In this document: positions 1,930 through 55,854 of the stretch, in pieces | Layout: every line of letters starts with the position of its first letter | How positions within the stretch are numbered: position 1 is the first letter of the stretch | From: an uncultured Ruminococcus sp. | GTDB taxonomy: Bacteria > Bacillota > Clostridia > Oscillospirales > CAG-272 | NCBI GenBank assembly: GCA_964621165.1 | Contig: CAZULC010000003.1 | Coordinates: 30,633 to 94,632, forward strand | DNA length: 64,000 bases | Reading direction: 5' to 3' | Notes under the pieces: generated by a model | Seen by the model: the letters and a program-made list of their open reading frames with translations, nothing else | What the model was told of the DNA's origin: nothing | The model's database searches: none | Program-made: the position numbers and the translations under genes

Positions 1930-3696
1930 TTAATTATTCATCTCTCCGTCAATTGTAATATTCTTCCCGGATACATCGCCGTTTGCGTCGCCTTCGATAT
2001 GTACGTCTCCGCGGGTCTTGACGTTGCCTTCAGCACTGCCGCCAATCGTAACCGACTCGTCCGCGTCAACATCCCCGTTTACGTCTCCTTCGACATTTAC
2101 GCTTCCTCCGGCTTCAACGTCCCCGCAGATATCCCCGCCAGCCGTAACGTCGCCTTCCGCATCAATATCGCCTGAAATCTCACCGCCTGCGTTCACGTCT
2201 CCCTGTGAATCCACGTCGCCTGAAATATCCCCGTCAGCCGATACATAACCACCGGCGTTCACGTTACCGCCAATATCACCACTAACTGTAGCATTGTCAC
2301 CGCAGCTTACATTCCCGCCGATATCTCCGACAGCTGTAACACTGTCTCCAGCGGTCACGTCACCGTCAACATCGCCGCCGACTGAAGCAGAATTTCCCGC
2401 ATTGAGCGCACCTTCAACGTCTCCGTCAACTGTAACATTCCCACTTCCGGTAACAGAACCGCTGACGTCGCCGTGTACCTCAACAGAATTCTCACAGCTT
2501 ATGTCGCCGTAAACATCGCCGTTGACGACAATATTTTCGATTCCATCGAGGTCGCCGTTGTAGTCCCCGTCGATTGTTACTGTTCTACCGTTCACGTGTA
2601 TACCAGTTCCGGAATTGACCTTGATTCTTAACGGCTCCTTGTTCACGTTGACATTGATCTTTTCGTCAAAATTCTTCTCAATCTTTTCGGGAAGGTTTGC
2701 TAGACTCTTGTCAAGCCGCTCCGAAACCAGGGACAAAATACCGTTGATTCTGTCGCTCAGCCCGTTCAGCTTGTCCATGGAACCCATCTTTTTCGTCTCC
2801 TCCGACGGATTTTTCTCCTCAGGATGAACGCCGAACTCACCGGAAGCCTTGCCCAGCACGGTCCTGCAGTTTACGCCGAATCCAGCGTTCACATTGCCTC
2901 CCACGTCGCCGCACTTGGTGTCAAATCCCGAGGACACATTTCCGCCCACGTCGCCATCAATCCGCATTTCAAAGCCTGAGGAAGCGTCTCCGCACACCAA
3001 GCCTTCCACCGTAACGCTCATAGCCGACTTAAGCTTGTACACATTGCCGGAGACAAGAACCGTGATGAAGTTGTCGGGATTGCCCCTGAATGAGCGCACA
3101 ATCTGCCCGTTTTTGATAACCGCAATCTCGTATTCGTCCTTCTTGAAGTTCAAATCTCCGGACGATAACGGAATGGAGTCATTCTTGAAGAAGCCGTTAT
3201 CAATACTGCAGTTTCCGCTGCCGCTGTCTTTCTTGGGAGCGGAGTAGACCACGTCAAAGCAGGGAGTGTTGTAATCGGGATTTTCTTCTTCGTCAGAAAC
3301 CGCGCCATCCGTGCTGACTTCAATCTTTGCTTCGTTTTTCGTGTTGTGCTCCACCTCAACCGATACGCCATCGACGTTGACGTCAGCCTCAACTGAAACC
3401 GTATCCACATATGCTTTATCAGCGTTTTCATTAGATGCTCCCGAGTTGTCTGCAAGAACATTGCCGCCGTTCTGGTTTAATTTAAGCTCCTCCGAGCCCA
3501 TAATTGCCGAAACGCTCTCACCGAAAATCTCCGCTATAATAGGGAGCGTCAGTATGTCAGGCAGCGTCTCGTTTCTCTCCCACTGGGATACCGCCTGATG
3601 GCTCACACCAATCATATCGGCAAGCTCCGCCTGTGTCAGACCCTTGCTCTTTCTAAGTTCAGCTATTCTTTGTCCGATTATACTTCTGTCCGTCAT
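1930..3696 (-). CDS. XRE-family HTH protein fused to a long GDV-repeat (bactofilin-like beta-helix) region
   Basis: 588 aa. N-terminus IGQRIAELRKSKGLTQAELADMIGVSHQAVSQWERNE is a classic Cro/C1 HTH. The C-terminal ~230 aa are tandem 8-9 residue repeats (GDVSGSV, GDVDGDV, GDIGGNV ...). No hydrophobic TM segment seen. Confidence 0.8.
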   Translation of the reverse strand: MTDRSIIGQRIAELRKSKGLTQAELADMIGVSHQAVSQWERNETLPDILTLPIIAEIFGESVSAIMGSEELKLNQNGGNVLADNSGASNENADKAYVDTVSVEADVNVDGVSVEVEHNTKNEAKIEVSTDGAVSDEEENPDYNTPCFDVVYSAPKKDSGSGNCSIDNGFFKNDSIPLSSGDLNFKKDEYEIAVIKNGQIVRSFRGNPDNFITVLVSGNVYKLKSAMSVTVEGLVCGDASSGFEMRIDGDVGGNVSSGFDTKCGDVGGNVNAGFGVNCRTVLGKASGEFGVHPEEKNPSEETKKMGSMDKLNGLSDRINGILSLVSERLDKSLANLPEKIEKNFDEKINVNVNKEPLRIKVNSGTGIHVNGRTVTIDGDYNGDLDGIENIVVNGDVYGDISCENSVEVHGDVSGSVTGSGNVTVDGDVEGALNAGNSASVGGDVDGDVTAGDSVTAVGDIGGNVSCGDNATVSGDIGGNVNAGGYVSADGDISGDVDSQGDVNAGGEISGDIDAEGDVTAGGDICGDVEAGGSVNVEGDVNGDVDADESVTIGGSAEGNVKTRGDVHIEGDANGDVSGKNITIDGEMNN

Positions 3697-6758: not shown

Positions 6759-8348
6759 TCAGTCGTCGATTTCCTTGTCATACTTGAGAACCGAGCCGTC
6801 GAGAGCGTTGATGTCGTAGTCATATTCGTACCCTCCGGACTTGAATTCAATCTCATAATGCATAACATTGTGATCGTCGTCCATCTCGACCTCAAGCTCA
6901 CGTATGTCGTCAAGGGTCAGACCGGCATGATTCAGTGCGGCTTCAAGAGCGGCGTCATAGCCAATGTAGCCCTCGCTTTCAAGCCCCACGGAAGATGAAC
7001 CCTTGCCCTTGTCGGATTTGTCCTTGCCGTCCATGTAATCGTCGTCCGGCTCAACTTCCGACTTCACAATTTCCCCGCTTGCGGCAAGAAGCTTGTATTC
7101 ATACTCGTATCCGCCGGCTTTGAATTCAACCTCGTAGTAATCCTCGCCGCCCTCGTTTTTCAGCTTGCACTCGTACTCGTAAACGTCAGCTGAATCAACT
7201 CCGGCTGTCTCGAGTACAAGATCGCGGACCTTTTCCATAACGCTGTCGAGTCCCTGAGACGTGCTGTTCTGCTGAACGTCGGCAGTGTTGCCGCTTTGTA
7301 TGGGAACGGACTGACTGTTCTTCTCTACATTCGTGCTGTTTGCCTGACCGTATCTGTAGTCGTCGTCAGGCTTTGAGTTTTTCTTTATTATCTCCCCGCT
7401 CTCGGCGTTGATGTCGAAGTCGTATTCCGTACCGTCGCACTTGAACTCGATCTCGTACACCATCACGCCCTGCTCGAATTCCATCTCGATCTCGTAGTCA
7501 AAGACGTCACTTTCACTGACTCCCGCATCGGAGAGAGCTATTTCCTTTGCCCGGTCGCGTCCGATGTAAGCCTTGTCGCTCGCCTGGCCCTGAGCCGCAA
7601 CATTTTCGAGGTTCAGCCCGCCGGACATGGTGAGCAGATTCAGCTCGTTTATCGACAGTGGAACCAAGTCCTCGAAGGTGTAGTACGCATTCTGTGCGGT
7701 AATCTGTGAAATGAGCTGAGCCTTGCCAACGGTGATTCCGTATTCCTCAGAGATTTTCTTTAAATTGTCGTCCACGCTGACAGTCTGACTGAGAACCGCA
7801 CCGTCAAGTCCGCCAAGGGATAGAATTTCCGCAATCTCGCCCGCAACCTTCTGCTGGATTTCCGCGCTTTTTTCCACGCTCTTTCCCTCAACGCTGACGA
7901 GAATTGAGTTCGTGACGTCGCTGAGATATCCGTTTTTCAGCATTGACCCGATCAGAGCGTTGACCGTGACCTCGAGAGAGCTTCCTTCAAAGTCCATGCC
8001 GCCTATGATTGCCGTGCCGTCCTCGTTCAGTGCGTTTACCCCGAGAACACGTTCGTTTTTGTTGATGTTTATCTCAACCGACGGATTCACATCGAGAGAA
8101 ACCGTTGAGGACACCGTGTTGTTTGCCGAATAAACTCCCGCCGAAGCTCCGATTCCGAGAACCAATACAGCGGACGCGGCTATAGCTATGATTTTCTTGT
8201 ACATTTTCTGACTCCTTCTCTTTGTCAATATAATTTTGTCCGATGGCTTAACTTCCGCGCAGTCGCTGAGAACCGAATCGAGAATGTCCGGTGTAATTTT
8301 CGCGCAGGCGGATTTCAGATTTCTTTCAATATCAGAGGTTTTCATCAT
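6759..8348 (-). CDS. anti-sigma-factor-like membrane protein with three PepSY domains
   Basis: 529 aa starting 2 nt after the ECF sigma gene. Short cytoplasmic N-terminus, one TM (IIAIAASAVLVLGIGASAGV), then three repeats of the YEIEFKxxGxEYxYxIxAxSGEI (PepSY) type. Confidence 0.7.
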   Translation of the reverse strand: MMKTSDIERNLKSACAKITPDILDSVLSDCAEVKPSDKIILTKRRSQKMYKKIIAIAASAVLVLGIGASAGVYSANNTVSSTVSLDVNPSVEININKNERVLGVNALNEDGTAIIGGMDFEGSSLEVTVNALIGSMLKNGYLSDVTNSILVSVEGKSVEKSAEIQQKVAGEIAEILSLGGLDGAVLSQTVSVDDNLKKISEEYGITVGKAQLISQITAQNAYYTFEDLVPLSINELNLLTMSGGLNLENVAAQGQASDKAYIGRDRAKEIALSDAGVSESDVFDYEIEMEFEQGVMVYEIEFKCDGTEYDFDINAESGEIIKKNSKPDDDYRYGQANSTNVEKNSQSVPIQSGNTADVQQNSTSQGLDSVMEKVRDLVLETAGVDSADVYEYECKLKNEGGEDYYEVEFKAGGYEYEYKLLAASGEIVKSEVEPDDDYMDGKDKSDKGKGSSSVGLESEGYIGYDAALEAALNHAGLTLDDIRELEVEMDDDHNVMHYEIEFKSGGYEYDYDINALDGSVLKYDKEIDD

Positions 8349-8349
8349 T

Positions 8350-8913
8350 TTAATCCTCCATTGTTAAGGCGTTTTTGAGCTTTTTTATGGCTCTGTTGTA
8401 TTTTGACAGCACCGTCGAGAGGGGAAGCGACATATGCTCAGCTATCTCCCGATGCTTGAATCCGGAAACAGCATGCAGCATGACTATTTCCCGTTCGTCG
8501 TCTTTCAGAATTTTCATGGCTCCCATGACGGCTGCCCGTTCGTCGTATGAGAGTCCATCGTGCGAGGCGATGTATTCGCTCCAGTCATCAATCTGCTCGT
8601 GATCCGCCCGGCTGTTGGCTCTCAGCTTTGACAGACATAAATTTTTGGTGATGGTGATGATCCATGCCATTGGTTTGCCCGACGAACGGTAAGCCCCGGC
8701 ATGAATGGCAATTTTTATGTAGCTGTCGTGCATCACATCCTCAGCGTCGGCGATATTCTGCAGAATGGACAGAGCATAAGAATAAACCTGCGTCTTTGTT
8801 TCTTCATACAATTTTTCGAGAGCGTCAGTGTTTTTCTCTGCAATTCTGTAAATCAGAGAATCGAGATCGGTTTCTTTCTCTTTTTCACGGTGTGCGGTGA
8901 CGGAAAACATCAT
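8350..8913 (-). CDS. ECF-type RNA polymerase sigma-70 family factor
   Basis: Region 2 (VMHDSYIKI..., WIITITKNLCLSKLR) and region 4 (REIAEHMSLPLSTVLSKYNRAIKKL). I place the start at the ATGATG preceded by GGGGGGAAG rather than the ORF-track start at 8952. Confidence 0.85.
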   Translation of the reverse strand: MMFSVTAHREKEKETDLDSLIYRIAEKNTDALEKLYEETKTQVYSYALSILQNIADAEDVMHDSYIKIAIHAGAYRSSGKPMAWIITITKNLCLSKLRANSRADHEQIDDWSEYIASHDGLSYDERAAVMGAMKILKDDEREIVMLHAVSGFKHREIAEHMSLPLSTVLSKYNRAIKKLKNALTMED

Positions 8914-9089
8914 CTTCCCCCCTTTCACTATATTAACGCCGCAGAACTCCATTTTATCGCATTATTTCAAAATTTTTTTAAATTTCTGAATTCCAAAAAA
9001 AACTATTGCAATTCATGGACGAAAATGGTATAATTTATCTGTAAAAATATATTAAATGGTAAAAATCAAAGTAAAAAGAATGAATCAAA

Positions 9090-18866: not shown

Positions 18867-20660
18867 ATGCATATGAAAAATAAAATAATCGATGTCGTAT
18901 GCCTGTCCGTAGTGGCGGTCTTGTTCGGCTCCGTGGTGGTTTTGAATCTCGTCCAGAAGGACAGACCCACCGAATCCCTTACGGAGAAGCGGGAGCTTGC
19001 GAAAATGCCCGATTTTTCCTTCGATTCTCTCTGTGACGGCTCCTATTTTTCAGGAGTGGCGGCATTTATCTCGGACACCTTCATTGAACGGGACAAAATC
19101 GTCGCGCTTTCCGAAAAAATGGAGACTCTCAAGGGAGTGGACTATTCAATCGGCGGTCAAAACAACTTTGCTCTTTTAAGCCCCATCGACAACCCCGCCG
19201 ACAATTCAGGCGAACATGAGGAACTGTCAAACAAGCTGACCGAAGCCCTCGACAGCCTGAACAAACAACCGGATCCGGACAAGGATCCCGATGACCAAAG
19301 CGGATTTGCCAATGTGACAAAGGATGAAACCACGCCTCCTGAAACCGAGCCGGAGACAACCCCTCCTGAAACCGAAACCGAAGCGGAATCAGATCCCGAG
19401 CCGGAGACGGAAAAGCCGGAGGAAACCGAAACTGATGATCCTGAAACCGAGACAGAACCCGCCGAAACCCAGCCCGATCCAGAAAATGAAGTCACGGCAA
19501 TACATTTGTCGAAATCATATCTCAAGCTCACAGTCGGAAGCGGCTCAGCCGTAAGCGCCACCGTTGACACTACAAATAAAGAAGGAGTCATGGTGAAGTG
19601 GTCCATATCCGACAGCAGTATAGCGTCAATTGCCGTGAACGAAAGCGGAGGAATCAACGTCAAAGGCGAAGCTCTCGGCACCGCAACCCTGACCTGCTTC
19701 TACGGTGATGTGAAAGAGGAATGCAAGGTCGAGGTGGTTGAAATCAACACAGCCTCCACCCAGCCCAGCGACGGACACGCGGACTTTCTCGCAAGCGGAC
19801 TGTTCATCTACGGCGACGCGGTTTACACCCAAGCATGGTACAGCGATTCCGCGGCTGAGGTCTACGCACAGACTGTGGAATACTACAAAAAGCTATTTGG
19901 CGATAATGTAAACGTCAGCGTGGTTGTGGCGCCCGTTTCATCAATGGTGGTGGACAACGAGGAAGTCCAGTCGAAAATCCAGAATCAGGACGAAATTATA
20001 CAGAAAATCGGCGCTCATATGGCTGCAGACATCAACTTCGTCAACCCCTACGCGGAAATGTACGCCCACAAAGACGAATACCTCTTCTTCAAGAGCGACC
20101 ACCACTGGACACAGAGAGGAGCATACTACGCCTACCGTGCCTTCGCGGAGTCAGTCGGATTTGAACCCACAGCTCTCGATGACTTCACCTACGAAATCCG
20201 CAACGACAGCTACAGCGGAAGCCTCTACAGTTGGACTGCCGACGAGAGAGTGAAGTACTTCAAGGACACAATCGAGGCGTTCCGACCGACAAAATCCCAC
20301 ACCATGACGGTTACAAGCTCCAACGGCACAGTTTACACATACGATACGTCAATTGTCAACACAAACCAGACCTACGTTACGTTTATCGCAGGCGACAACC
20401 CATACACTGTAATCAACGTTCCCGACAATCCACAGGACAAAAACATCCTTGTTCTCAAGGATTCCTTTGGCAATGCGTTCGTCCCATTCCTATGCGAGCA
20501 TTACGGAAACATTATAGTGATAGATGTGCGTTATTCCAATTTCAATATATATGACCAGCTAAAGGACTACGGCTTGTCCGACATAGTTTTTGTGAACAAC
20601 GTCCAGGCTATCACAGCTGAGTGGGCGCAGATGTACCTTAAAGCAGTCGGCGTACAATAA
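18867..20660 (+). CDS. DHHW family (AlgX/AlgJ-like) protein with Big_2 domain and acidic Pro/Thr/Glu linker
   Basis: 597 aa. N-terminal TM, low-complexity ETTPPETEPETTPPETETEAESDPEPE linker, Big_2-like segment (LKLTVGSGSAVSATV...), and the FKSDHHWTQRGAYYAY signature. Confidence 0.8.
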   Translation: MHMKNKIIDVVCLSVVAVLFGSVVVLNLVQKDRPTESLTEKRELAKMPDFSFDSLCDGSYFSGVAAFISDTFIERDKIVALSEKMETLKGVDYSIGGQNNFALLSPIDNPADNSGEHEELSNKLTEALDSLNKQPDPDKDPDDQSGFANVTKDETTPPETEPETTPPETETEAESDPEPETEKPEETETDDPETETEPAETQPDPENEVTAIHLSKSYLKLTVGSGSAVSATVDTTNKEGVMVKWSISDSSIASIAVNESGGINVKGEALGTATLTCFYGDVKEECKVEVVEINTASTQPSDGHADFLASGLFIYGDAVYTQAWYSDSAAEVYAQTVEYYKKLFGDNVNVSVVVAPVSSMVVDNEEVQSKIQNQDEIIQKIGAHMAADINFVNPYAEMYAHKDEYLFFKSDHHWTQRGAYYAYRAFAESVGFEPTALDDFTYEIRNDSYSGSLYSWTADERVKYFKDTIEAFRPTKSHTMTVTSSNGTVYTYDTSIVNTNQTYVTFIAGDNPYTVINVPDNPQDKNILVLKDSFGNAFVPFLCEHYGNIIVIDVRYSNFNIYDQLKDYGLSDIVFVNNVQAITAEWAQMYLKAVGVQ

Positions 20661-20802
20661 AGTGACAGGTCGGGACGCCCCGACAGGCAAACACAGGGCG
20701 GGGAAGCCCCCGCGGGCATACACGGCACTTCTACAACTGAAACTATAAGAAATCCCACGACGACGGGGGCTAGCTCCCGCAATATAACTGCAAAATTAAA
20801 AC

Positions 20803-20851
20803 AACTCCCTATGGAATCAAGTTCGCGCAACTGAACCACAGGGAGTTTTTC
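20803..20851. terminator. bidirectional terminator between the DHHW and GNAT genes
   Basis: AACTCCCT (20803-20810) / AGGGAGTT (20840-20847), followed by T5 on plus and GTTTTAATTTT on minus. Confidence 0.6.
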
Positions 20852-28733: not shown

Positions 28734-30561
28734 TTGTTCAAGCATAAGAAAAATCCCGATACCATAATGTTCACGGAGTCTTTGCCGCTGTTCGCCGCGT
28801 CAGTCAGACGGGTTTGGCGGATGGACAGGAAGTACATCCTTTTCTCCGACTTCGTCTACCTCCTCGGCACGGTCCCGCCCCTTCTGACCGCATACATCAC
28901 TGCGGTTTTCAACAAACGTTTAATCGCAGGCTAGCAGGCTTACCCGTCGTATTTCTGCGCGTTCTACCCACTCATCATAGCTTTCGCTGTATCTGTGCTG
29001 GAATTCGTTTTTTTCATGGTATGGCAGTGGGTCGGAAACCGCACATATGACCGGATTACTTCGATTCTTATGTGGGATTCGGTGAAAAAAGCGTCAAAAA
29101 TAGATTACGCCTCCTATGACAGTCCTGAATTCTACGACCGTATACAAAAAGGCTGGTCACTGGACGGGCAGCGGTTTGTCGCCAGCGCACAGAGCATTTT
29201 CAACACGCTGTCCTGTATTGCCGGGATGGCTGCGTATGCCGCGATTTTAGCCTATGTCGACTGGAAGCTGTTTTTGGTTCTGATCCTGCTGCGGATAGCA
29301 TTCACTCCGATTGACGAGAAAACCGGCAGGATGATCTACCGTTTCAACAACAAATTAGCCGAGCAGCGGAGGAAGGAGTCGTATTACCGCAGCTTTTTCG
29401 ACAACAAGGGAATGGCAGCTGAGGGCAAAATATTCGACCTCTACAGCTACGCACGGGAAAACTACATATCGGCGAACAAAAAGATATATAAGCAAACCTT
29501 TATATTTGAGCTTAAAATCAAGGGAATAAAGCTCCTGTCCGAGGTAATGTGGAATCTGCCAATCGCGGCGGTGTACATCTACCTGTCAGTCTGCGCGTAC
29601 AACGGCACGGTCAGCCTTGGGGACATGACAATGTGCATAGCGATGTATGTCGGCTTCATCAACCAGCTCTACAACACCATTGCCAACATAACGGGATTCC
29701 GAAACGACGCGGAAAGAGCGCGGTTTTCACGGGAATTTCTCGCTCCCCCCACAACAATCTGCGCCGATGGCGACGAATCAAAGCCAAAGGTTGACTCAGG
29801 TTTTGCCGGACATACGGTGGAATTTTGCGGCGTGTCCTTCGCATATCTCGGAATCGATAAGAAGGTTCTCGACAACGTCAGCTTTAAGGTTGGCTCCAAC
29901 AAAACCGTATCCGTAATCGGCGCAAACGGCGCAGGAAAGACTACACTTGTACATCTACTCATGCGGCTGTACGACCCCACCGAAGGCGTGATTCTGCTTG
30001 ACGGCAGGGATTTGCGCGAATACTCGGCGTCGAGCCTGTACGAAATTTTCGGCGTGCTGTTTCAGGACTACTGTGACTACGCCGTGAGCGCCTGGGAGTT
30101 CGTAACTCTGTCCACTGTCGAGCTGGATGTGAGTCGATTCAGCGACGCATTAAAGTCCTCTACATCATACAAATTCATAAATTCACTCAAAAACGGCATA
30201 AATACCGCCCCTGTCAAGTAGGTTCGACCCCGACGGAATCGAGCTGTCCGGCGGTTAGAAGCATCGGGTGGCACTTGCGCGGGCATATTACAAGGACGCA
30301 CCTGTCATAGTCCTCGACGAGCCGTCAGCCTCCATTGACCCGCAATCCGAGACGGAGATTCTCGCGTCCGTGAAAATGCTCCACGGCAAGCGGAATATCT
30401 GGCTCATTTCCCACCGGCTCAGCACCTGCGTCATTTCCTATTTGGTTCTGCTGCTGAAGGACGGCAGGCTTATCGGAAACGGTTCGCACGACGAGCTGAT
30501 GGAAAACAACGACGAGTACCGCCGTATGTTCAGACTCCAAGCCGACAGATATGAGGTGTAA
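28734..30561 (+). pseudogene. ABC exporter, fused permease/ATPase (pair A, gene 1), disrupted
   Basis: TTG start behind AAGGTG. In-frame TAG at 28932-28934, a +1 frameshift near 30200-30221 (GINT|PLSSRFDPDG), and an in-frame TAG at 30256-30258 exactly at the Q of the LSGGQ signature (IELSGG*KHRVALARAYYKDAPVIVLDEPSASIDP). Walker A GANGAGKTT is present. Confidence 0.8.
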
Positions 30562-46253: not shown

Positions 46254-48071
46254 TTGAATAAGATTAAGCGGCACATTACCAACGTGAAAAAATCCTGCAC
46301 AGCGGAATGGTATGTGGTAAAGCTGCTGTTTTCATCCCAGCCGGTATTAGCAGTGTTGTACATCATTTTCCACACGCTGAGCTATCCTGTTTCTCTCGTC
46401 AATATCTTCCTTTGGAAGGAGGTGCTGGACGCCCTGACTGAAGGGAAAAACACGGATTTGAAGCGCATAATATTTTTAGTATGTCTGTACCTGCTTCTGA
46501 CGATTTTTATATCCTGCTTGGGCAAAATCAATTTTGGTATAATCCGCCCAGCCTTGTATATGAAATCCCAAAAGCAGCTGGACGAGCGCATTATGAAGAA
46601 AATGTCAGAGCTGGATTTATCCTTTTTTGACGAACCCGAAAATCAGGATATGCTCCAGGTTGCTCAGAACAGCAAGCAGCAGGTCAGCGACGCCATGACA
46701 TATTTTGTCCGCGAGTCTGTCAATACTGTTACATTTGTTATAGGGCTGGACTGTTTTCTCTCAATTTAGACTGTAGTCGGATATGCGTATTTGCTGACAA
46801 ATCTACCGAGTGTCCTGATCAACCATAACAATAATGTGAAAATGGATCGTTTATCAATCAGAAGTGTTTCGGAAAATCGGGAAAAGGACTATTATCGGAG
46901 TCTGCTGACAACGAGCAGCTACGCAAAGGATTTACGGCTGTATAATCTGCGCACATACTGGCTGGAAAAATACCAAAACATATGGAATAAGCTTAGAGCT
47001 GAGCGTGCGAAAATTTTCACCCGCGGCGTAATGCTCTCGGGCATATCCCTCTTGTTGTCAGCCGCGGGAAGTATTCTTATTGTAGTATATTCCTCATATT
47101 CGGTGCTGAAAGGCGGAATGACAATCGGCACATTAACTATGTTTTTGTCCTTCGCGGAAAAATCCAAAGTATGTTTTTGGCATTATGTCATTCCTTTCCC
47201 AATCATATCAAGGTCACGATTCCTCATATTCTTCGTTTTATGGAATTTTTGTCCCTTCCTTTTCAGAATATCAAGGGAGAGGAGCCAATCGAACAGAAAC
47301 CCCCGTCAATTGAGTTTCAGAATGTTTCCTTCCATTATCCAAATGATGAGAAGAATGTTCTGCAAAACCTGAATTTAACCATTGCTCCCGGTAAAAAAGT
47401 CCTTTTGGTAGGGCAGAACGGCTCAAGAAAGACCACAATCATGAAATTGCTGCTCAGGTTTTACCGACCGACAGAAGGTCAGATTCTGATTAACGGCAAA
47501 AATATAGAATCTTATTCGCAAAAAGAATTATATCGTGTTTTCAGCGTATGCTTCCAATAAACTGAGCAATATGCCATGACCCTGCGGGAAAATATCGCAA
47601 TATTCGACGTTGACAGGATAGATGAAACGGAATCCATAAAGTCGGCTGCCCATAAGGCTGAGGTTGACGCGATTTACAAGTCCCTTCCCGAGGGCCTTGA
47701 CGCGGACTTGACAAAGAGCTTCAAACAGTAAAGGTCATGTGCTGTCCGGCGGGCAGTGGCAGAAGATTGGGCTGTCAAGAGTGTTTTAAGTGACTCAGTC
47801 TTTATGATTTTTGACGAACCTTCATCCCTTGAATCCGGACGCTGAAAACTTCGTGTTTGAATCCATCAGGACCTTGTGTCAGAACAAAGGCGGATTGATT
47901 ATCTCCTGCAGGCTGACCGCAGTTCCTTTGGCGGACGAAATTATATTCTTGAATGATGGAAAAATCAGCGAAGCCGGAACGCACAGTGAATCAATTAAAC
48001 ATAACGGTGAATATGCTAACATGTACCGACTGCAGGCTGACAAATATAAACTGATCAAGAAGGAGGCATAA
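46254..48071 (+). pseudogene. ABC exporter, fused permease/ATPase (pair C, gene 1), heavily disrupted
   Basis: Readable pieces occur in all three frames. In-frame TAA at 47558-47560 (VCFQ*TEQYAMTLRENI), LSGGQWQKIGLSRVF in one frame then LSDSVFMIFDEPSS in another (T4 run near 47783), further shifts near 46770, 47170, 47730 and 47830. Walker A is degenerate (GQNGSRKTT). Confidence 0.75.
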
Positions 48072-48074
48072 ATC

Positions 48075-49858
48075 ATGACTGAAATAAAGAAGCAAATCAA
48101 ATACGTCATTCAGGCGACAAAGCTGATTTATATGGCGTCGGGGAAATATTACATATGGATTTTTCTCCTGAGTCTGCGCCTGTCCGTTCTGCCGTATGTA
48201 CCGATGTTTTTATGACGTTCCCTATTGAATGCTTTGACGGCGGAAAGTAAAGACAGTCATGCAGTGGTATTTTTCATAGGATGCTACTGCCTCAGTGTTT
48301 TTCTGTCGGGACTATTCAACCGTATCTATAGAATAGTTTCCTACCAATATAACGACAGAGTGGACTATTATATAGATAATCTTCTGATTGAAAAGATTGC
48401 GGGGGCGGATATTTCCTTCTTTGACAGCAGTGAAATTGCGGACAAGCTCAGGAATGCCTCCAACTATATGCGCGGCACAACAAAATCAATCGTCATGTTT
48501 ATATTCTACATAATGCAGAGCTTCCTCAGAATTGCGGTTTCCGTTTTGATTATGATAGAACTGGATTATAAAGTCCTGCCGCTCATTCTTCTGTTTAGAG
48601 TGGTTCCGATATTGACGCAGAAAAAGAACAGGGAGGAGCAGTACAATTTTAATAAAGAGCAGTTAATGAGACAGAGAAAAATGGATTACATAAAAGAACT
48701 GTTTTTCAGTGGCGCAAAATATGAGCTTCGTCTGTATGTATGAGTTTAAGGATTTTTTACTCGGAAAATATAAAAATGAATGGGATGAGTATTATTCCCA
48801 AAACAAAAAGCTGCAAATCCGACTCTGAGGGCGTGAATGTGCTTCTGTATTTATGGAAGTTGGTATCGAAGCGATTGCGATTTTCTTCTCGGTGGAAAAA
48901 ATGCTTTCGCAGACGACGACAGGAATCGGCTACGTCACCTATTTTATTTCCACTGTAAATCAAATCAAGACAAATCTGCTCGGACTTTCGAATATTTATA
49001 CGCGCTTTACCCAAGAATGTACACAGCTCGACGATATTATGGACTTCATTTCCTACACCCCGAAAACAGAGATCGGCGGCAGTATGTGTCCGAAGATGAA
49101 TTGTATCCCGAGAACCACATTAAAAAATGTGTCATTCAAATATCCGAATTTCGACGAATATGTTTTGAAAAATTGCAGCTTTACCATAAATCCCAGAGAA
49201 AAAATCGGTCTGGTTGGAAATAACGGCGCCGGAAAAAGTACGATTGTGAAATTGCTGTGCAGATTCTACGATCCGACCGAAGGAGTCATTGAAGTAAATG
49301 GAGGTGACGTCAGGGAATATGAGCTGTCAGCACTGCGGCGGCTGTATGGTGTTGTTTCAGGATTATGTGCGGTACAGCTTTTCCTTGCGGGAAAATATCG
49401 CATTGTCGGATATTGAAAAGAAGGATTGATGACCGGAAGATAAATGCCGCAGTGTCCCGCAGCCATGTGTCCGACTTTGCAGGGGAATGGGATAATGCTA
49501 TGGAAGCATCTGACCCGGCAGTTCGATAAAGAGGGCAAAGAGCTGGCCGGAGGTCAATGGCAGAGTGTTTCTTTGGCGAGAGCGTTTTTCCGTGACGCGC
49601 CGGTTGTACTGCTTGACGAACCATCCGCCGCACTTGACCCCATTGCGGAGTATGAGATTTTTGAAGATTTCGCAAGGCTGTCAAAGGATAAAAGCGCGGT
49701 TTTGATTTCCCACCGGCTGTCGAGCATTACGCTGTGTGACAGGATTTTAGTTTTGTCGGACGGACACATCATCGAGCAGGGTTCCCACGCGGAGCTGATG
49801 AAGCAGAACGGGAGAATACGCTCGACTGTTCAGCCTTCAGGCGAGCAAGTATATGTGA
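48075..49858 (+). pseudogene. ABC exporter, fused permease/ATPase (pair C, gene 2), heavily disrupted
   Basis: ATG 48075 behind AGGAGG. In-frame TGA at 48213-48215 (PMFL*RSLLNALT), frameshifts near 48740, 48840, 49370-49440 and 49815. GNNGAGKST and LLDEPSAALDP are readable. True stop inferred at 49856-49858 (YARLFSLQASKYM*). Confidence 0.75.
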
Positions 49859-49976
49859 GCTTTGGGATTACAATGTGATTGAATCAACGCCTATGTTGAA
49901 ACGCGACTGTTTCCTGTGCCGTGATATACGTCTTATGTAGAGAAAGAAATTCCCGCAGAAGCATACACGTCCCGCG

Positions 49977-50255
49977 TCAATTCATATAAGTCCTCGTCCA
50001 GTTAACGCCCATGACGTCGCACCATTTCCGTATCTCTCTTCTGAGGCAGATTTTACGGTGCCTGTACCAATAATCCTCAAGCTCCAGTCGGCGTACAGTC
50101 TCACGGAAACGCCGGAACGCACCTTTGCCTTGTATCGCGTCAAGTATTTTATCCTGATATGGTTTTGGAAGCGAGTACGCAAAGTTTTCCATCAAATCAT
50201 ACTCGTCAATAAAATTACCATACGGAAGCATTATGACGTCGTCCTGTTCACTCAT
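49977..50255 (-). CDS. UPF0158-like small protein
   Basis: 92 aa. ...ILDAIQGKGAFRRFRETVRRLELEDYWYRH resembles the UPF0158 signature as I recall it. 4-nt overlap with the upstream gene. Confidence 0.55.
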   Translation of the reverse strand: MSEQDDVIMLPYGNFIDEYDLMENFAYSLPKPYQDKILDAIQGKGAFRRFRETVRRLELEDYWYRHRKICLRREIRKWCDVMGVNWTRTYMN

Positions 50256-50701
50256 AAGCTTTTTAATTGAGACAGCTCCTCCTTTTCCGTGTCAAACAGT
50301 TTCCCCTCGTCAATATCTCCGTCTAGACATGCGACGACACTGCGGGAAAAGTACATGATCTCGCCGGTTGATTTTTTGCAGAATCCGAGATTTTCGTTGT
50401 CAGGATGTCCGTCATCAAGCTCGGACGCTTCAAGCATCTTTTCGATAGTGCCAAACCGCAGCTTTGAGTCAAGCTCGTCCAAGTCTGCCGCAATGTAACT
50501 GAACCGGGAAACTTCCTTGCCATCCAAAACGACAGTTTCGTTCCACATGGACAGCGGTCTTGCCCAGCATTGTTTGGTTAATGTATTTTTATAGATAACC
50601 AGCTCTTCCAGCAATTCACTGTGCTTTGCAATCCCTGTAACCTCGTAAATCCCGCCCTTGAAATGACGATATATACCGGTCAACACCTGATTTTCTTCCA
50701 T
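50252..50701 (-). CDS. DUF1653 domain protein with C-terminal extension
   Basis: 149 aa. GIYRHFKGGIYEVTGIAKHSELLEELVIYKN...WARPLSMW is the DUF1653 pattern. Confidence 0.6.
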   Translation of the reverse strand: MEENQVLTGIYRHFKGGIYEVTGIAKHSELLEELVIYKNTLTKQCWARPLSMWNETVVLDGKEVSRFSYIAADLDELDSKLRFGTIEKMLEASELDDGHPDNENLGFCKKSTGEIMYFSRSVVACLDGDIDEGKLFDTEKEELSQLKSL

Positions 50702-50709
50702 ATTTTACC

Positions 50710-52107
50710 TCACAGCATCTTCTCGAGCTTTGGCATCCTGTTTGACCAGCCCATTTCCTTAGCCCACTCGCGCATTTCTTCGGCCTGCTCCTTGTCTTTT
50801 CCGTGAATAGTTCTCAGCATGTCAACAAAACCGCGAATTCCGCCAACGTCGTCAAGCAGTCGAAGTCCTTCCGCGGCAATGCACACGGGAGTATTGCTCT
50901 TGGCCACACTGAAAGGCGGCTCCGTCAGCTCATCAGGAGCTTTTTCGCCTGTTGTAATTGAATAGAAGAATCGAATGCCGCTCTTGTCCTCACCGTCATA
51001 CGCTGTCACAATGCCACCCCACTTGCCGGAATGAGAGCTTTCTTCGTCGAAGCTGTGCACATCCTCGCAGGTCACTTTCACACACCAGCCGTCACCGTAG
51101 TCGTAGTGGTACAGTAATGTATCGGTCAGCGGGGAAATGCCGGGGGTAATAATCGACAGCAGACCCTCAATGACGCTCTCGAGAACTGCAATCACCTCTG
51201 ATTTATGACAGCTTATATTATCGTTTGCCACGTAGTCTAAGCCGAGATAAACGCCGCGTTGTCTGAATGTTTCGGCATTTGTCAGCTCATTTTTACAGTT
51301 CTGTAAACAGTCGAATTTTTCAATCAGCTCATCATATCCCTGACCGCACGAACAGCCGCCGAAAACCTGCTTCTTTGCTTTGATTTCACCCGACATTCTG
51401 TTCAGCCACTCAGCTGTGCCCGGCAGAGATGTTATTGGACGGAGAAGTGCGTCAACAGTCAGACATTCGAGCAGATTGTTACAGTCTTCACCCAAATATA
51501 CCATTTTATTTAAATCTTCAATAGTGGAAATATCGCCGTGAGATTTTCTGAAATCACTTTTTTCAAATTCATCAACGAGCTGTTGGTTCCTGATGTAGGT
51601 GTTGCTTACGCACAAAGGCAAAACTGGACTGCTGTACATTTCTTTGACCCATTCTTTGTATGGCTTCAAACTGTCGTAAATTTCATCGCTGTATCTGTTG
51701 CTGTCGTCATCGTCCTCGGGAAAATGGAACAATAGTCCGCACAGCTCCTCCCACTTTGAAATGTTGCCGCCATCCGTTGCCGACATGAATGAATCATCCA
51801 TGAGGGTGAAGCTGTGAAGGTGAGAATTCTGCCAGCCAAACAGTGTCTGAATCACAAAATGCAGTGATTTGAGCCGCATTGACGAGGGAACGAGAACCTC
51901 ACGCCAGAATCCGGTTTTGACCTTAGCGTATTTTTGCAAAACCGTAAGCTCGTCCTCATCCCATTTTATTTCTTCTCCATCATAATCCGCAAGTTCCAGT
52001 CTCAGCCTTAAAACTGTGGGACAGCGTTTCTTTTCAACCGTTGGAATTGTTGTGCCGCCGTTAACACTTTCTGTGTTAAAATGATTGTCGTTCATTGTAA
52101 AAATCAT
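50710..52107 (-). CDS. pRiA4b ORF-3-like (MM3350 / IS1096 passenger TnpR-like) family protein with large internal insertion
   Basis: 465 aa. The N-part FWREVLVPSSMRLKSLHFVIQTLFGWQNSHLHSF and the C-part YHYDYGDGWCVKVTCE...PVCIAAEGLRLLDDVGGIRGF are the two halves of the PRiA4_ORF3 domain, separated by ~200 aa. Alternative start at 52095. Confidence 0.65.
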   Translation of the reverse strand: MIFTMNDNHFNTESVNGGTTIPTVEKKRCPTVLRLRLELADYDGEEIKWDEDELTVLQKYAKVKTGFWREVLVPSSMRLKSLHFVIQTLFGWQNSHLHSFTLMDDSFMSATDGGNISKWEELCGLLFHFPEDDDDSNRYSDEIYDSLKPYKEWVKEMYSSPVLPLCVSNTYIRNQQLVDEFEKSDFRKSHGDISTIEDLNKMVYLGEDCNNLLECLTVDALLRPITSLPGTAEWLNRMSGEIKAKKQVFGGCSCGQGYDELIEKFDCLQNCKNELTNAETFRQRGVYLGLDYVANDNISCHKSEVIAVLESVIEGLLSIITPGISPLTDTLLYHYDYGDGWCVKVTCEDVHSFDEESSHSGKWGGIVTAYDGEDKSGIRFFYSITTGEKAPDELTEPPFSVAKSNTPVCIAAEGLRLLDDVGGIRGFVDMLRTIHGKDKEQAEEMREWAKEMGWSNRMPKLEKML

Positions 52108-52136
52108 CCAAGTCTTTCCGACCTGTCGTGTTCCTT

Positions 52137-52224
52137 AAAAAATCCAAGTCCCGCGGCAATCCGGTCCCCGCAAGCACTTGTTTTGTTGTAATGACAGTAT
52201 AGCAAAAAAACACGAAATAAGCAA
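52137..52224 (-). promoter_or_regulatory. promoter plus terminator-like hairpin in the 5' leader of the PRiA4-like operon
   Basis: On the minus strand: TTGCTT (52224-52219), 17 nt, TATACT (52201-52196). Then hairpin CAAGTgcttGCGG...CCGCgggACTTG (52180-52145) followed by GATTTTTT (T-run 52142-52137), ~30 nt before the start codon. Confidence 0.5.
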
Positions 52225-52361
52225 TATTTTTTTCGAATATAGCCGTATTTTTGCATTAACACTGTGGGATATACCTATTGAGGAAAACTCGGCCGGCTGC
52301 CATTCGGCGGGAAAGTATATATTTTAACTCGGAAAACTCCAAAAAATTTCCGCAAAACCTA

Positions 52362-52390
52362 TTGACAAAAAAGAACACAAATGTTATAAT
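52362..52390 (+). promoter_or_regulatory. consensus sigma-70 promoter of rpsF-ssb-rpsR
   Basis: TTGACA (52362-52367), 17 nt, TATAAT (52385-52390). Confidence 0.75.
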
Positions 52391-52485
52391 AAACAATTGA
52401 ACGGGCAAATTTAAGATAGTCCGTCTCTCTACCGTCGGAAAAATCAAGCCGGCGGTCTGAAAAGTCCATAGGGAGGTATAAACAA
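52391..52485 (+). promoter_or_regulatory. structured rpsF 5' leader (possible S6:S18 autoregulatory element)
   Basis: Two hairpins: ACGG...CCGT, and ACCGTCGG aaaaatcaag CCGGCGGT (8 bp with one G-U). Position matches known rpsF leaders. I cannot verify the motif by eye. Confidence 0.35.
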
Positions 52486-52827
52486 ATGGAAATCATTAAC
52501 TCTTACGAAACCCTTTTTGTTATTGACTCTGACCTTACCGAAGAAGCAACAAAAGCTCTCGTTGAGAAGTTTACAAAGCTCATCTCCGATAACGGTGAAA
52601 TTGTTGAAGTAAACGAATGGGGCAAGCGCAGACTCGCATACCCGATCAACGACAAACCCGAGGGTTACTACGTACTGATAAACTTCAAGAGCCAGGCAGC
52701 GCTTCCCAGCGAGCTTGAAAGAATTTTCGGTATCACAGAGGGCATCATCCGCTCCATCGTAATTCGTCACGAGGAAAAGAAGTCGTCTAAGAAACCAGAA
52801 GAGAAAGCTGCTGAAGCAGAAGCGTAA
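52486..52827 (+). CDS. rpsF: 30S ribosomal protein S6
   Basis: MEIINSYETLFVIDSDLTEEATKALVEKF...WGKRRLAYPI. Conserved rpsF-ssb-rpsR order. Confidence 0.95.
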   Translation: MEIINSYETLFVIDSDLTEEATKALVEKFTKLISDNGEIVEVNEWGKRRLAYPINDKPEGYYVLINFKSQAALPSELERIFGITEGIIRSIVIRHEEKKSSKKPEEKAAEAEA

Positions 52828-52884
52828 AGCCGCTAAAACACCTGACTGACAAAAATCTGTCAGGGAAGAAAGGCATGGTCAATT

Positions 52885-53394
52885 ATGGCTAACTTTAACT
52901 TTAACAAAGTTATATTGGGTGGACGTTTAACCGCTGACCCGGAACTCAAGACAACCCCCTCCGGCATTTCCGTAACGTCGTTTACAGTTGCCGTGAATAG
53001 AAGGTTCGGCTCAAAGCAGGGCGAGGAAGCACAGGCTGACTTCTTTAACGTAACCGCGTGGAGACAGACCGCGGAGTTCATAACAAGATACTTCCGCAAG
53101 GCAAGCTCCATCTGCGTAGTCGGTACAGTCCAGACAAGGACGTGGATTGACGGACAGGGACAGAAGCGTTTTGCTACGGAAATCGTTGCCGACGAAGCTT
53201 ATTTTGTTGACGCAAAGAGCGAAAGTCCTATCGCGGTTCAGCAGGCTGCGGCAATGTACGCACAGAACCAGGCTCCCACCTACGTTCCCGAAGGATACGG
53301 TAGCTTTAACACTCCTACCCAGAATTCCGGAACCCAGAATCAGAATGCGCCTAAATTTGAAGAAATTTCAGACGATGAGGAATTACCTTTCTGA
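52885..53394 (+). CDS. ssb: single-stranded DNA-binding protein
   Basis: MANFNFNKVILGGRLTADPELKTTPSGISVTSFTVAVNR OB fold. Gln/Asn-rich linker and acidic tail DDEELPF. Confidence 0.95.
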   Translation: MANFNFNKVILGGRLTADPELKTTPSGISVTSFTVAVNRRFGSKQGEEAQADFFNVTAWRQTAEFITRYFRKASSICVVGTVQTRTWIDGQGQKRFATEIVADEAYFVDAKSESPIAVQQAAAMYAQNQAPTYVPEGYGSFNTPTQNSGTQNQNAPKFEEISDDEELPF

Positions 53395-53435
53395 GATACC
53401 AAAGGTAACAATTTTAACAGGAGGATTAAGTAAGA

Positions 53436-53756
53436 ATGGATACAGAAAAGACTGAAGTAGTTGCCGAGGAGACTACCGCTCCCGCCGCAGCTGAAAGAAC
53501 AGAATCCGCACCCCAGCAGAGAATCAACCGTCAGGGCAGAAACAACAGAAGAAAAAAGGTCTGCCTGTTCTGCGCTGAAAATATCGACTACATTGACTAT
53601 AAGGATATTGCAAGACTGAAAAAGTGCATCGCTCCCGAAAGAGGAAAGATTCTCCCCAGAAGAATTTCCGGCTGTTGCGCTAAGCACCAGAGACAGCTCA
53701 CCGTAGCTATCAAGAGAGCACGCCAAATCGCACTTCTCCCCTACATTGCTGACTAA
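53436..53756 (+). CDS. rpsR: 30S ribosomal protein S18 (with ~30-aa N-terminal extension)
   Basis: ...[66 protein letters not shown]. Confidence 0.9.
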
Positions 53757-53901
53757 GCAGGCATAACTTAAGCGAAAATCTCCGATTGACCGAATCCGTC
53801 ATGGATTTACTCCAACCGGAGTTTTTATTTTGTACGGCTGAAAATCAAAAAAAGCGCCTCCCCGAAGAGAAACGCTTAATTTTGTTATTCTGTCAAATTG
53901 A

Positions 53902-53926
53902 CGTGAGTTGGAAGTGTTCTGTTGGC
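53902..53926. repeat. left arm of a 25-bp imperfect inverted repeat
   Basis: CGTGAGTTGGAAGTGTTCTGTTGGC matches the reverse complement of 54739-54763 at 22/25 positions. Confidence 0.9.
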
Positions 53927-53969
53927 ATGAGTCACTCTAAAATATCAGATCGTTCTGTTTGCAGATATC

Positions 53970-54636
53970 TTACTTATCTTCTACTAAGTTGTTGTGCGGA
54001 ATGTCGCAGGTAAAAATCCCATGAACCTCACAATAATCGCCGACCATCACAGGGTCATAGGGCTTGCTGTCAGAATCATTACTTCCCGCTAAAGCCGGAA
54101 CCGGTGTAGGGTTATCCAATCCAAGTTTTTTTGCCACTCTTGCGCGTAAATCTGGTTATTTCGGTAAAGAACAATATGCGTCATCTTTACCGCTTGTATC
54201 ATCAATGTGGTAATATGCCTCAACATGATAATCATCATTATGCGCTCCTCTTGCGAACCAACCGCAGTCTGTGCAAATATACGCGTTCCAGCACAACTCC
54301 TGAACGGTGCTACAGTCTGATCCATGAAGACGCGGGAAATAACATGATGCGTAATAATCGTCTTCCAAGCAACTCTCACTGTAGCAAAGCGTGGCTTCTT
54401 TACCGCATAAAGGACATTCTACATAATAATAAGATCTATTCAAACCATAACCATGACAAATAGTTGCAGTTCTGCTCAAGATGTTCAGCACAAATATCTG
54501 CTGCGTGAATTGCTTCAGAATAATAGTCAACAGGTTCCGGACTGATATTGTCAGACGCACAAACCAAAATTACTGCTGAAACTGCAACAAGAACTATCGC
54601 TGATATCAATATTGCTGTTTTTTTAGCTTTATTCAT
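53970..54636 (-). pseudogene. membrane-anchored Cys-rich hypothetical protein, disrupted
   Basis: Signal-anchor MNKAKKTAILISAIVLVAVSAVILVCAS (frame 1). The Cys-rich body ...ICHGYGLNRSYYYVECPLCGKEATLCYSESC...CTDCGWFARG is in another frame (shift near 54440-54480). In-frame TAA at 54156-54158, then 61 more sense codons to TAA 53970-53972. Confidence 0.5.
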
Positions 54637-54738
54637 AATTAAACATTAAACCTCTCAATTCTAATATCACTCGTCTGAATACAATAAAAAAATGTGTATA
54701 ATAATCGAAGAACATCCAAAATTTGTTTATTATGATAA

Positions 54739-54763
54739 AGCCAACAGAATCTTTCCAACTCAC
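54739..54763. repeat. right arm of the 25-bp inverted repeat
   Basis: GCCAACAGAATCTTTCCAACTCACG. Its outer 8 nt also pair with CGTGAGTT at 54783-54790 to form a local hairpin just downstream of gap. Confidence 0.9.
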
Positions 54764-54822
54764 GCCAACCCTCTCAGGAATAACGTGAGTTTAAAAACAA
54801 CAGACTAAATCTAACCTAAACC

Positions 54823-55854
54823 TTAGTTCAGCTCAGCGAAGTACTTGATTGTACGAACCATCTGGCTGGTGTAGGAGTTCTCGTTGTCGTACCAGGAAAC
54901 AACCTGAACTTGATATGTGTCGTCATCAATCTTTGTTACCATTGTCTGAGTGGAATCAAACAGTGAGCCGTATCTCATTCCAACAACGTCGGAAGAAACG
55001 ATAAGCTCGTCGTTGTAGCCGAAGGATTCGGAAGCCTGAGCCTTCATAGCGGCGTTGATTGAATCCTTTGTAACGTCCTTGCCCTTAACAACAGCAACGA
55101 GGATTGTGGTGGAACCGGTTGTTACAGGAACTCTCTGAGCGGAGCCGATGAGCTTGCCGTTGAGTTCGGGAATAACAAGTCCGATAGCCTTTGCGGCGCC
55201 GGTGGAGTTGGGAACGATGTTAGCGGCACCTGCTCTTGCACGTCTCAGGTCGCCCTTTCTCTGAGGACCGTCGAGGATCATCTGGTCGCCGGTGTATGCG
55301 TGAACTGTTGTCATGATACCAGAAACGATCGGATAAGCGTCATTCAGAGCCTTAGCCATAGGAGCGAGGCAGTTTGTTGTGCAGGAAGCAGCGGATATGA
55401 TCTGGTCATCGGGTGTAAGAGTCTTCTCGTTTACGGAATAAACGATTGTCTTCAAGTCATTGCCGGCGGGAGCGGAGATAACAACCTTCTTTGCGCCTGC
55501 GGTGATGTGAGCCTGGGACTTTTCCTTGGATGTGTAGAAGCCTGTGCATTCGAGAACTACGTCTACGTCAAGCTTTCCCCAAGGGCAGTCTGCCGCGTTC
55601 TTTTCAGCGTAAATCTTGATTTCCTTGCCGTCAACAACGATGGAATCTTCTGTGGAAGTGACGGTGTGCTTGTTTTCGCCGATCTTGCCGAGGAATGAAC
55701 CCTGAGCTGTGTCGTACTTCAGAAGATGAGCGAGCATTGCGGGGCTGGTAAGGTCGTTGATAGCGACAACCTCGTAGCCTTCAGCGTCGAACATCTGACG
55801 GAAAGCAAGACGACCAATGCGGCCGAAACCGTTAATAGCAACTTTAACTGACAT
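54823..55854 (-). CDS. gap: type I glyceraldehyde-3-phosphate dehydrogenase
   Basis: [15 protein letters not shown], active site SCTTNCLAP. Start at ATG 55854 behind GGAGG (the ORF-track start 55869 is a TTG). Confidence 0.95.

Follow-up and report, generated by a model that had tools for sequence, protein, structure and literature searches.

An inverted repeat around a decayed foreign gene downstream of gap in an uncultured Ruminococcus, possibly an RNA clamp

The stretch of DNA analyzed here, 64,000 nt from contig CAZULC010000003.1 of an uncultured Ruminococcus sp. (assembly GCA_964621165.1; hereafter the window), holds a cassette between gap, encoding glyceraldehyde-3-phosphate dehydrogenase, and rpsR, encoding ribosomal protein S18. 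The cassette consists of one disrupted gene for a membrane-anchored protein rich in Cys and His, framed by an imperfect inverted repeat of 25 nt. It had been noticed in an earlier inspection of the same letters (the original prediction), and its placement between the two housekeeping genes is confirmed on both sides. W denotes the genome of the window in what follows, and L001, L088 and similar numbers denote relative loci or contigs. Read on the minus strand, gap is followed by a 31-nt spacer, a short third copy of the repeat end, a 19-nt loop, the gap-proximal (5') arm, a 100-nt leader with a Shine-Dalgarno sequence, the Cys-rich gene, a 43-nt spacer, the distal (3') arm and, after a further 24 nt, a strong intrinsic terminator (Table 1). 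The cassette lies on the strand of gap, and a terminator scan found the stretch from gap (54823) to the cassette gene free of terminator-like sites; the first such site downstream of gap lies after the 3' arm, and it is both the first canonical terminator and the only strong one. Rfam 15 and tRNA scans detected nothing at the locus, their only matches in the window being two tRNAs at 57.8 and 63.6 kb.

Table 1. Features between gap and rpsR, with positions in the window.
Feature	Position	Strand	Details
gap, type I glyceraldehyde-3-phosphate dehydrogenase	54823..55854	-	Open reading frame; 99.1% amino acid identity to the L001 gene, which has Gp_dh_N and Gp_dh_C
Local hairpin	54757..54791	-	Third copy AACTCACGT (54791-54783) pairs with the outer end of the 5' arm, CGTGAGTT (54764-54757)
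Gap-proximal (5') arm CGTGAGTTGGAAAGATTCTGTTGGC	54740..54764	-	Outward extension with mismatches to ~54784; 24/25 in L001
Putative sigma-70-like promoter match	54729..54758	-	-35 TTGGAA within the arm, 18-nt spacer, -10 CATAAT; from a consensus scan only
Shine-Dalgarno sequence and pseudogene, membrane-anchored Cys/His-rich protein	53970..54656	-	Gene from 54636 down to 53970
Distal (3') arm GCCAACAGAACACTTCCAACTCACG	53902..53926	-	Outward extension with mismatches to ~53884; 22/25 in L001, differences clustered at the centre
Intrinsic terminator	53845..53877	-	11-bp stem (53877-53852), UUCG loop, T-run; z = -4.6
Terminator-like hairpin after rpsR	53809..53822	+	Right-hand limit of the region
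rpsR, ribosomal protein S18	53436..53756	+	Convergent with the cassette

The left arm, which reads CGTGAGTTGGAAGTGTTCTGTTGGC on the plus strand, has a single partner in the window, the minus strand of the right arm, with which it agrees at 22 of 25 positions (3 mismatches). None of the shuffled versions of the window gave two matches to the 25-mer, the pair ranks first among inverted pairs within 3 kb across the entire 64 kb, and by analytic estimate an inverted repeat this good (22/25 or better, within 1 kb) is expected by chance 0.004 times per 64 kb, or 0.18 times per 3 Mb. The inverted repeat described in the original prediction is thus real, and the pairing of its right arm stands, although the coordinates given for that arm were 1 nt too low (54739-54763 instead of 54740-54764). 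The same correction applies to the third copy, which does exist and does pair with the outer end of the right arm: it comprises 9 nt at 54783-54791 on the minus strand, which places the 8-mer CGTGAGTT at 54784-54791. Without gaps the repeat extends in W to 29 nt at 86% identity (53898-53926 and 54740-54768, with the arms 813 nt apart), and with an internal loop, as read from the sequence and the fold, to about 43-45 nt (53884-53926 and 54740-54784). As a consensus the arm motif can be written CGTGAGTYGGAA-N3-4-TCTGTTGGC, with CGTGAGTNGGAANNNNTCTGTTGGC as the degenerate pattern for searches.

With the gene between the arms conceptually repaired, the predicted protein has 222 aa; a membrane anchor lies at its N terminus, and many of its Cys, His and Asp residues are invariant. 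Compared with its family, the copy in W carries three lesions: a tandem 7-nt duplication (TTTAATG/TTTAATT, 54637-54650), which puts the Shine-Dalgarno sequence 14 nt away from the ATG; an additional T near 54462 that shifts the frame by +1; and a change of TTA to TAA at 54156-54158. The disrupted, membrane-anchored Cys-rich gene announced earlier is therefore borne out, the duplication being a third lesion that the earlier account had not included. Two Logan contigs from run SRR10165008 are 100% identical to the window, one (L097) over 54865-53424 and the other (L098) over 46885-53452, which rules out sequencing or assembly error as the cause of the disruption; the lesions are therefore real. 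The truncated 66-aa product of this copy is also on record. The protein family is rare, with 4 full-length homologues of 205-217 aa among 5.8 billion proteins and 24 members in a profile search of 1.84 billion cluster representatives. A Pfam scan of the reconstructed protein matched no family, and AlphaFold2 run on the 4-sequence alignment gave an unusable model (mean pLDDT, the per-residue confidence score, 37).

A distant homologue of the Cys-rich protein was seen in L002 (2397-4949), in an operon-like row after an extracytoplasmic function (ECF)-type sigma factor (Sigma70_r4_2) and a DUF4367 protein, a context that hints at a possible envelope-stress role for the family. The window has an ECF sigma factor of its own, paired with an RsgI-like protein, at 6759-8952. 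The distant homologues found in other contexts are accompanied by no such repeat.

One relative carries the cassette with its gene intact. L001, a 21-kb contig from metagenome assembly GCA_037193895.1, encodes a 217-aa protein at this place and has the order 264-aa gene, gap, cassette, RelA/SpoT-type gene and gpsA, followed by rpsR-ssb-rpsF on the opposite strand. In L001 the third copy, the terminator and both arms (2240-2264 and 3068-3092) are all retained, and its inverted repeat extends to 48 nt at 79%. Ordinary genes of W and L001 are 76-84% identical at the nucleotide level, with a synonymous divergence (dS) of 0.8-1.2 and 49-60% of synonymous sites differing (pS), and the two therefore represent different species; gap and the ribosomal genes are the only ones that look close (dS 0.2-0.26), which fits codon bias. 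For the cassette gene dS is 0.79, an ordinary value, while the nonsynonymous divergence (dN) of 0.27 is 2-3.6 times the ordinary level (0.075-0.14). That the interior has diverged at synonymous sites as much as ordinary genes points to vertical descent of the cassette, as judged from these two sequences, and not to recent movement. Outgroup identities are nearly equal for W and L001, and the decay of the gene in W for this reason looks recent.

Against this level of divergence, a few islands within the cassette DNA are conserved, namely the two arms, the 9-nt third copy and the terminator. The arms agree between the two species at 46 of 50 positions, as compared to 114 of 164 (~70%) in the other non-coding DNA of the cassette (Fisher p = 6e-4), and the binomial probability of such conservation is at most 0.002 even if a baseline of 75% is assumed. 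The third copy is retained at 9/9 positions, whereas the spacer between the gap stop codon and this copy is only 55% identical; the terminator is retained at 24/26, with both changes being A/G swaps opposite U that keep the pairing. In W, the arms, the hairpin and the terminator are all intact beside a dead gene. A repeat kept nearly unchanged in two species probably has a function, as far as two carriers can tell. The contrary view, that the repeat is a functionless by-product, such as an inverted duplication left from building or inserting the module, can draw on a chance expectation that is not negligible at the scale of a whole genome (the 0.18 per 3 Mb given above) and on the fact that only two carriers are known. 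It would leave the arms conserved at 46/50 while around half of synonymous sites differ, and would leave the conservation of the third copy and hairpin without a reason, and we consider it very unlikely.

Some relatives show the locus without the module. L088, from assembly GCA_037193195.1 (sister to that of L001), is conspecific with L001 (99.2% nucleotide identity over the gap end and 97.4% in the RelA/SpoT gene), but positions ~2190-3176 of L001 are replaced there by a 174-bp stretch that holds its own two terminators together with a single ~97-nt repeat of an unrelated kind; the cassette terminator is missing from this empty allele and hence belongs to the variable module. Two relatives at a greater distance (L091 and L100, with gap about 95.5% identical in amino acids) have gap, a terminator, RelA/SpoT and gpsA with the module absent, and another two (L092 and L099) have gap, a terminator and then pgk. 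Among 80 relatives of gap from the genome collection the Cys-rich gene was absent beside every one, and in the nine closest of those examined a strong terminator follows within ~20-60 nt of gap. The empty sites that the original prediction had named as a check are thus present in L088, L091 and L100. The GC content at third codon positions (GC3) of the module is 0.257 in L001 and 0.28-0.43 in W, against 0.53-0.69 in every neighbour of the two carriers (0.53-0.62 for the genes beside the pseudogene in W). Composition and empty sites together show the module to be a low-GC, foreign, horizontally acquired and strain-variable one-gene unit located 3' of gap. Because the relatives carry gap's own terminator at this position and lack the module, the latter is an acquisition in the lineage of W and L001 that replaced the gap terminator and that is polymorphic within the species of L001.

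Several observations on the surroundings of the module can be added. In L001 (3158-5039) the space between the cassette terminator and rpsR is occupied by the gene for a small alarmone synthetase (RelA/SpoT domain) and by gpsA, and L088, L091 and L100 have these two genes as well; W has lost both from this position (junction 53840 / 53826). The ~97-nt repeat, which ends in a GC-rich hairpin (CACCTGTCGGGGTGTCCCGAC), occurs as 2.9 tandem copies in L001 (8987-9264) and once in L088 (681-770), with partial matches in the window at ~20660-20850, and appears to be a small dispersed intergenic element of this genus. Contigs break within or next to gap and rpsR, with L088 and L090 ending at positions 1583 and 1587 of L001, and L097 and L098 at 54865 and 53424-53452 of the window, which suggests that co-occurring related strains fork the assembly graph at the conserved gap and rpsR genes.

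The original prediction had proposed that the cassette could be a non-autonomous mobile element, i.e., a miniature inverted-repeat transposable element (MITE) or the remnant of an insertion sequence (IS) carrying a passenger gene. Mobile insertion cassettes and MITEs are IS-derived, lack a transposase and combine terminal inverted repeats with passenger genes, as in the MIC231 type of B. cereus and the qnrD mic (PMC3913671, PMC6542083). The locus is like them in having inverted repeats around one passenger gene without a transposase, a foreign composition, and an empty site in a close relative. It is unlike them in that its repeats are not terminal, in that no target-site duplication, other copy or cognate IS was found, in that it has its own hairpin and terminator outside the repeats, and in that it has been kept at one locus through speciation. 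When the filled and the empty allele are compared (L001 vs L088, with flanks of 97-99% identity), homology is lost near the gap stop codon, no more than ~15-20 nt past it, and picks up again directly behind the T-run of the terminator; the variable segment thus reaches ~30-50 nt beyond one arm and 70-85 nt beyond the other. At the 25-, 29- and ~45-nt boundaries of the inverted repeat, neither W nor L001 shows a direct repeat, even one as short as 2 nt, that could represent a target-site duplication.

Searches for further copies gave a similar picture. The 25-mer, with up to 6 mismatches allowed, has no other copy in the window or in 89 other loci; half-motifs of the arm occur elsewhere only at about chance level; and the pattern CGTGAGTNGGAANNNNTCTGTTGGC had 0 exact matches in public genome, metagenome and viral collections. 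This last negative says little on the rest of the W genome, because no gap in the genome collection is closer to that of W than 92% in amino acids, and the genus seems to be absent from it. Exact look-ups of the window's RpsR, GAPDH and 264-aa neighbour gave no match, and a literature search on the run and assembly accessions brought up no paper. No recombinase or transposase domain was detected in 40 open reading frames (nearly all of the large non-overlapping ones of the window) or among the called genes of L001, and plasmid and phage collections gave no protein or DNA match above chance, nor did viral contigs.

Of the four features that define a MITE, an IS end or a mobile insertion cassette, terminal repeats and a target-site duplication were missing, further copies or a cognate transposase did not turn up in the DNA searched, and the empty site alone was present; we reject this assignment, while retaining from it that the passenger gene belongs to an accessory, horizontally acquired unit. 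A broader version would have the arms as ends, or subterminal repeats, of a non-autonomous cassette that is moved in trans and whose enzyme requires them to be conserved. Such a scenario would account for presence and absence at the locus, for the foreign composition of the whole module, and for the 3' spacer of gap behaving as an insertion hot spot in which L088 holds a different small repeat element, and the distance of the nearest gap in the collection leaves room for additional copies in W beyond the window. It has to contend with variable-segment limits outside the arms, a hairpin and terminator that travel along, the lack of a target-site duplication, transposase, second copy (in the window, the 89 other loci, and the genome, metagenome and viral collections) and plasmid or phage DNA similarity, and with the same site being filled in two species whose cassette interiors have diverged like ordinary genes. 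We regard it as quite improbable. Other mobile structures were considered and rejected: integron attC, direct-repeat att sites and IS200/IS605-type ends, on grounds of anatomy, as the hairpins at the two ends are not related to each other, direct repeats are lacking and the neighbourhood has no tRNA; and a link to Tn3, the terminal repeat of which contains AAAACTCACGTTAAG at its inner end and thereby resembles the third copy, a resemblance we take to be coincidence given the wrong orientation relative to the cassette, the lack of a GGGG outer end and the absence of a plasmid blastn match. A diversity-generating retroelement was likewise rejected, the window showing no reverse transcriptase and no template repeat.

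Inversion was the second possibility raised by the original prediction. Here a recombinase encoded elsewhere would flip the 0.86-kb segment as a whole-gene switch, leading to phase variation of a surface protein; in the orientation seen the gene would be read from the strong gap promoter and end at the fixed terminator, and in the flipped orientation it would be antisense and silent. In classic switches (hin/hix, fimS and C. difficile cwpV are examples) it is a promoter or part of a gene that is flipped. The length and spacing of the repeat match known invertible segments, blocks of 12 and 9-10 nt in the arms are near invariant in two species while centre and interior vary, the terminator lies outside the repeat, and the stretch from gap to the gene has no terminator. 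The membrane-anchored product, its fast evolution (the dN given above), its variability among strains and its easy loss are the usual profile of a phase-variable protein. Compared with the invertons catalogued by means of PhaseFinder and PhaVa (10.1101/2023.03.11.532203, PMC11602134), the locus is alike in having inverted repeats of tens of bp around a segment of less than 1 kb by a surface-protein gene, with repeats conserved and the interior varying, and in that the recombinase may be encoded elsewhere. It is unlike them in that the whole gene and its leader are inside while the gap promoter and terminator are outside, and in that no alternative orientation (in 3 assemblies), recombinase or sister site was found and the arm centres differ. 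In particular, the independent assemblies of the window, L097 and L001 share one orientation with contigs unbroken through both arms; there is no recombinase in the 40 open reading frames or the called L001 genes and no other copy of the arm motif in 64 kb; the arms are mismatched at three central positions in a row, just where a crossover core would have to be identical; the conserved third copy and hairpin are left unexplained; and a flipped cassette with its own promoter would fire into gap. We consider inversion unlikely, albeit worth keeping in view, and in the sequences compared we found no evidence that the repeat either hops or flips.

The arms could also act as DNA, as paired operator sites. 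In this scenario a regulator would bind the 25-bp site at both ends and the partial third site, looping or silencing the cassette. Conservation affects the sequence itself, in the form of two blocks around a variable spacer of 3-4 nt, which is consistent with binding sites, as are the direct GTTGG repeat that each arm holds, 14 nt apart, and the overlap of the 5' arm with the promoter-like site. Yet no further site exists in the 64 kb, the module has no regulator gene, the site 3' of the gene lies just before the terminator without an obvious target, and the reading is wholly inferential; we would give it little credence. The -10 region of the putative promoter (TTTATCATA) is kept in L001. A reading of the arms outward as ECF-type promoters (AAC-N17-CGTC) was rejected, as these would fire into the terminator or antisense into gap.

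We tentatively prefer a mechanism at the level of RNA, a long-range clamp in the gap read-through transcript, which we rank ahead of inversion, movement in trans, operator sites and lack of function while giving it clearly less than even weight. Since gap has no terminator of its own, its transcripts would be expected to continue across the cassette and stop at the distal terminator. The local hairpin would fold first, from the third copy and the outer portion of the 5' arm; the 3' arm, made 0.8 kb later, would then pair with the whole 5' arm, nucleating on the free inner block, and the resulting helix of ~28-31 bp would loop out the foreign reading frame and bring the terminator beside the gap stop codon. 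The clamp might then either be processed by a double-strand RNase or shield the 3' end, and the fate of the gap mRNA would thereby be uncoupled from the foreign, poorly translated reading frame downstream.

When the read-through RNA is folded over its full length, gap stop codon to terminator, the arms pair at 22/25 positions in the minimum-free-energy structure of both W and L001 (summed pairing probability 21.2 and 21.7, duplex energy -34.9 and -33.2 kcal/mol, respectively). Including 6 nt outside the arms, a hand count gives 28/31 pairs in each species, with 3 G.U pairs in W and 2 in L001 that form in the minus-strand transcript only. The local hairpin (-20.2 kcal/mol, z = -5.0 in W; -14.1 kcal/mol, z = -3.0 in L001) and the long helix are mutually exclusive. 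A change from G.U to A-U just outside the arm keeps the pairing in both the hairpin and the long helix, a register shift between the species keeps 5-7 pairs of the outer helix, and in the centre the bases are rearranged without a net gain or loss of pairs. The conservation of the hairpin favours RNA because a model of DNA inversion or of transposon ends does not predict the third copy, and as the arms are intact beside a dead gene, a role tied to gap fits better than one tied to the protein. The terminator, which is constrained by structure only, is conserved as much as the arms are. That the metastable hairpin and the two arms form an RNA device which travels with the acquired gene, loops the foreign reading frame out and insulates the mRNA of gap, an essential and highly expressed host gene, from it, re-creating a protected or processed 3' end, is a possibility that we put forward as rather doubtful in this full form.

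Several points weigh against the clamp and should be kept in mind. Co-transcription of gap and the cassette is inferred from an absent terminator; folding does not discriminate, since any transcribed inverted repeat folds; and a helix spanning 0.8 kb must compete with local folding and with ribosomes. No double compensatory change is seen between the two carrier sequences, two being a number for which covariation statistics are not meaningful. A U-A pair at arm position 8 is broken in L001 by a change to C.A, and the mismatches in W are A.C, G.A and A.C, none of them G.U. The gene in W may have died too recently for decay of the arms to show, and if the promoter-like site in the 5' arm is real, transcripts started there would be without the 5' arm.

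Long-range pairing between the two ends of a transcript is known from hok/sok, where fbi and tac pair and a metastable 5' hairpin forms, and from S. aureus icaR, where pairing of the 5' and 3' untranslated regions is cut by RNase III; the stems flanking 16S and 23S rRNA and the Correia repeats are further RNase III substrates. The arrangement downstream of gap resembles these systems in having complementary stretches on both sides of a reading frame, a competing local 5' hairpin that can form first, and a helix which, at more than 20 bp, would suit cleavage by a double-strand RNase or protection of the 3' end. It is unlike them in that a 0.8-kb loop contains a 217-codon gene, in that the 3' untranslated region of an upstream housekeeping gene is concerned and not a ribosome-binding site, and in that it belongs to no Rfam family. 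The locus recalls the geometry of an inverton, the content of a mobile insertion cassette and the three-element RNA logic of hok fbi-tac and icaR, and fits the full definition of none of them.

Each of these readings would carry its own significance. If the clamp is true, the locus would show one way for a foreign gene to be tolerated inside the transcription unit of a core glycolytic gene, and bacteria, for which few devices of long-range 5'-3' pairing are known, would gain another. If the inversion switch is true, it would represent a rare flip of a whole promoter-less gene relative to a housekeeping promoter, in a lineage of uncultured-type Oscillospiraceae. If the repeat is a relic, what remains is an ordinary strain-variable islet holding a pseudogene.

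Elsewhere in the window, decayed genes are seen among transporters as well. An ABC transporter (membrane and ATPase domains) at 46254-49878 is broken into at least 5 open reading frame pieces, and another ABC ATPase is truncated (28995-30221). The breaks in the former are shared by L098, an independent contig, and are therefore real pseudogenes and not assembly errors. The ~29 kb between the rpsF upstream region and the GNAT/DHHW genes (23222-52340), for which L001 has no counterpart, looks like a strain- or species-specific block; it contains a BlaR1-type M56 peptidase, several ABC transporters, a LytTR two-component pair, CotH, DUF1653 and PRiA4_ORF3.

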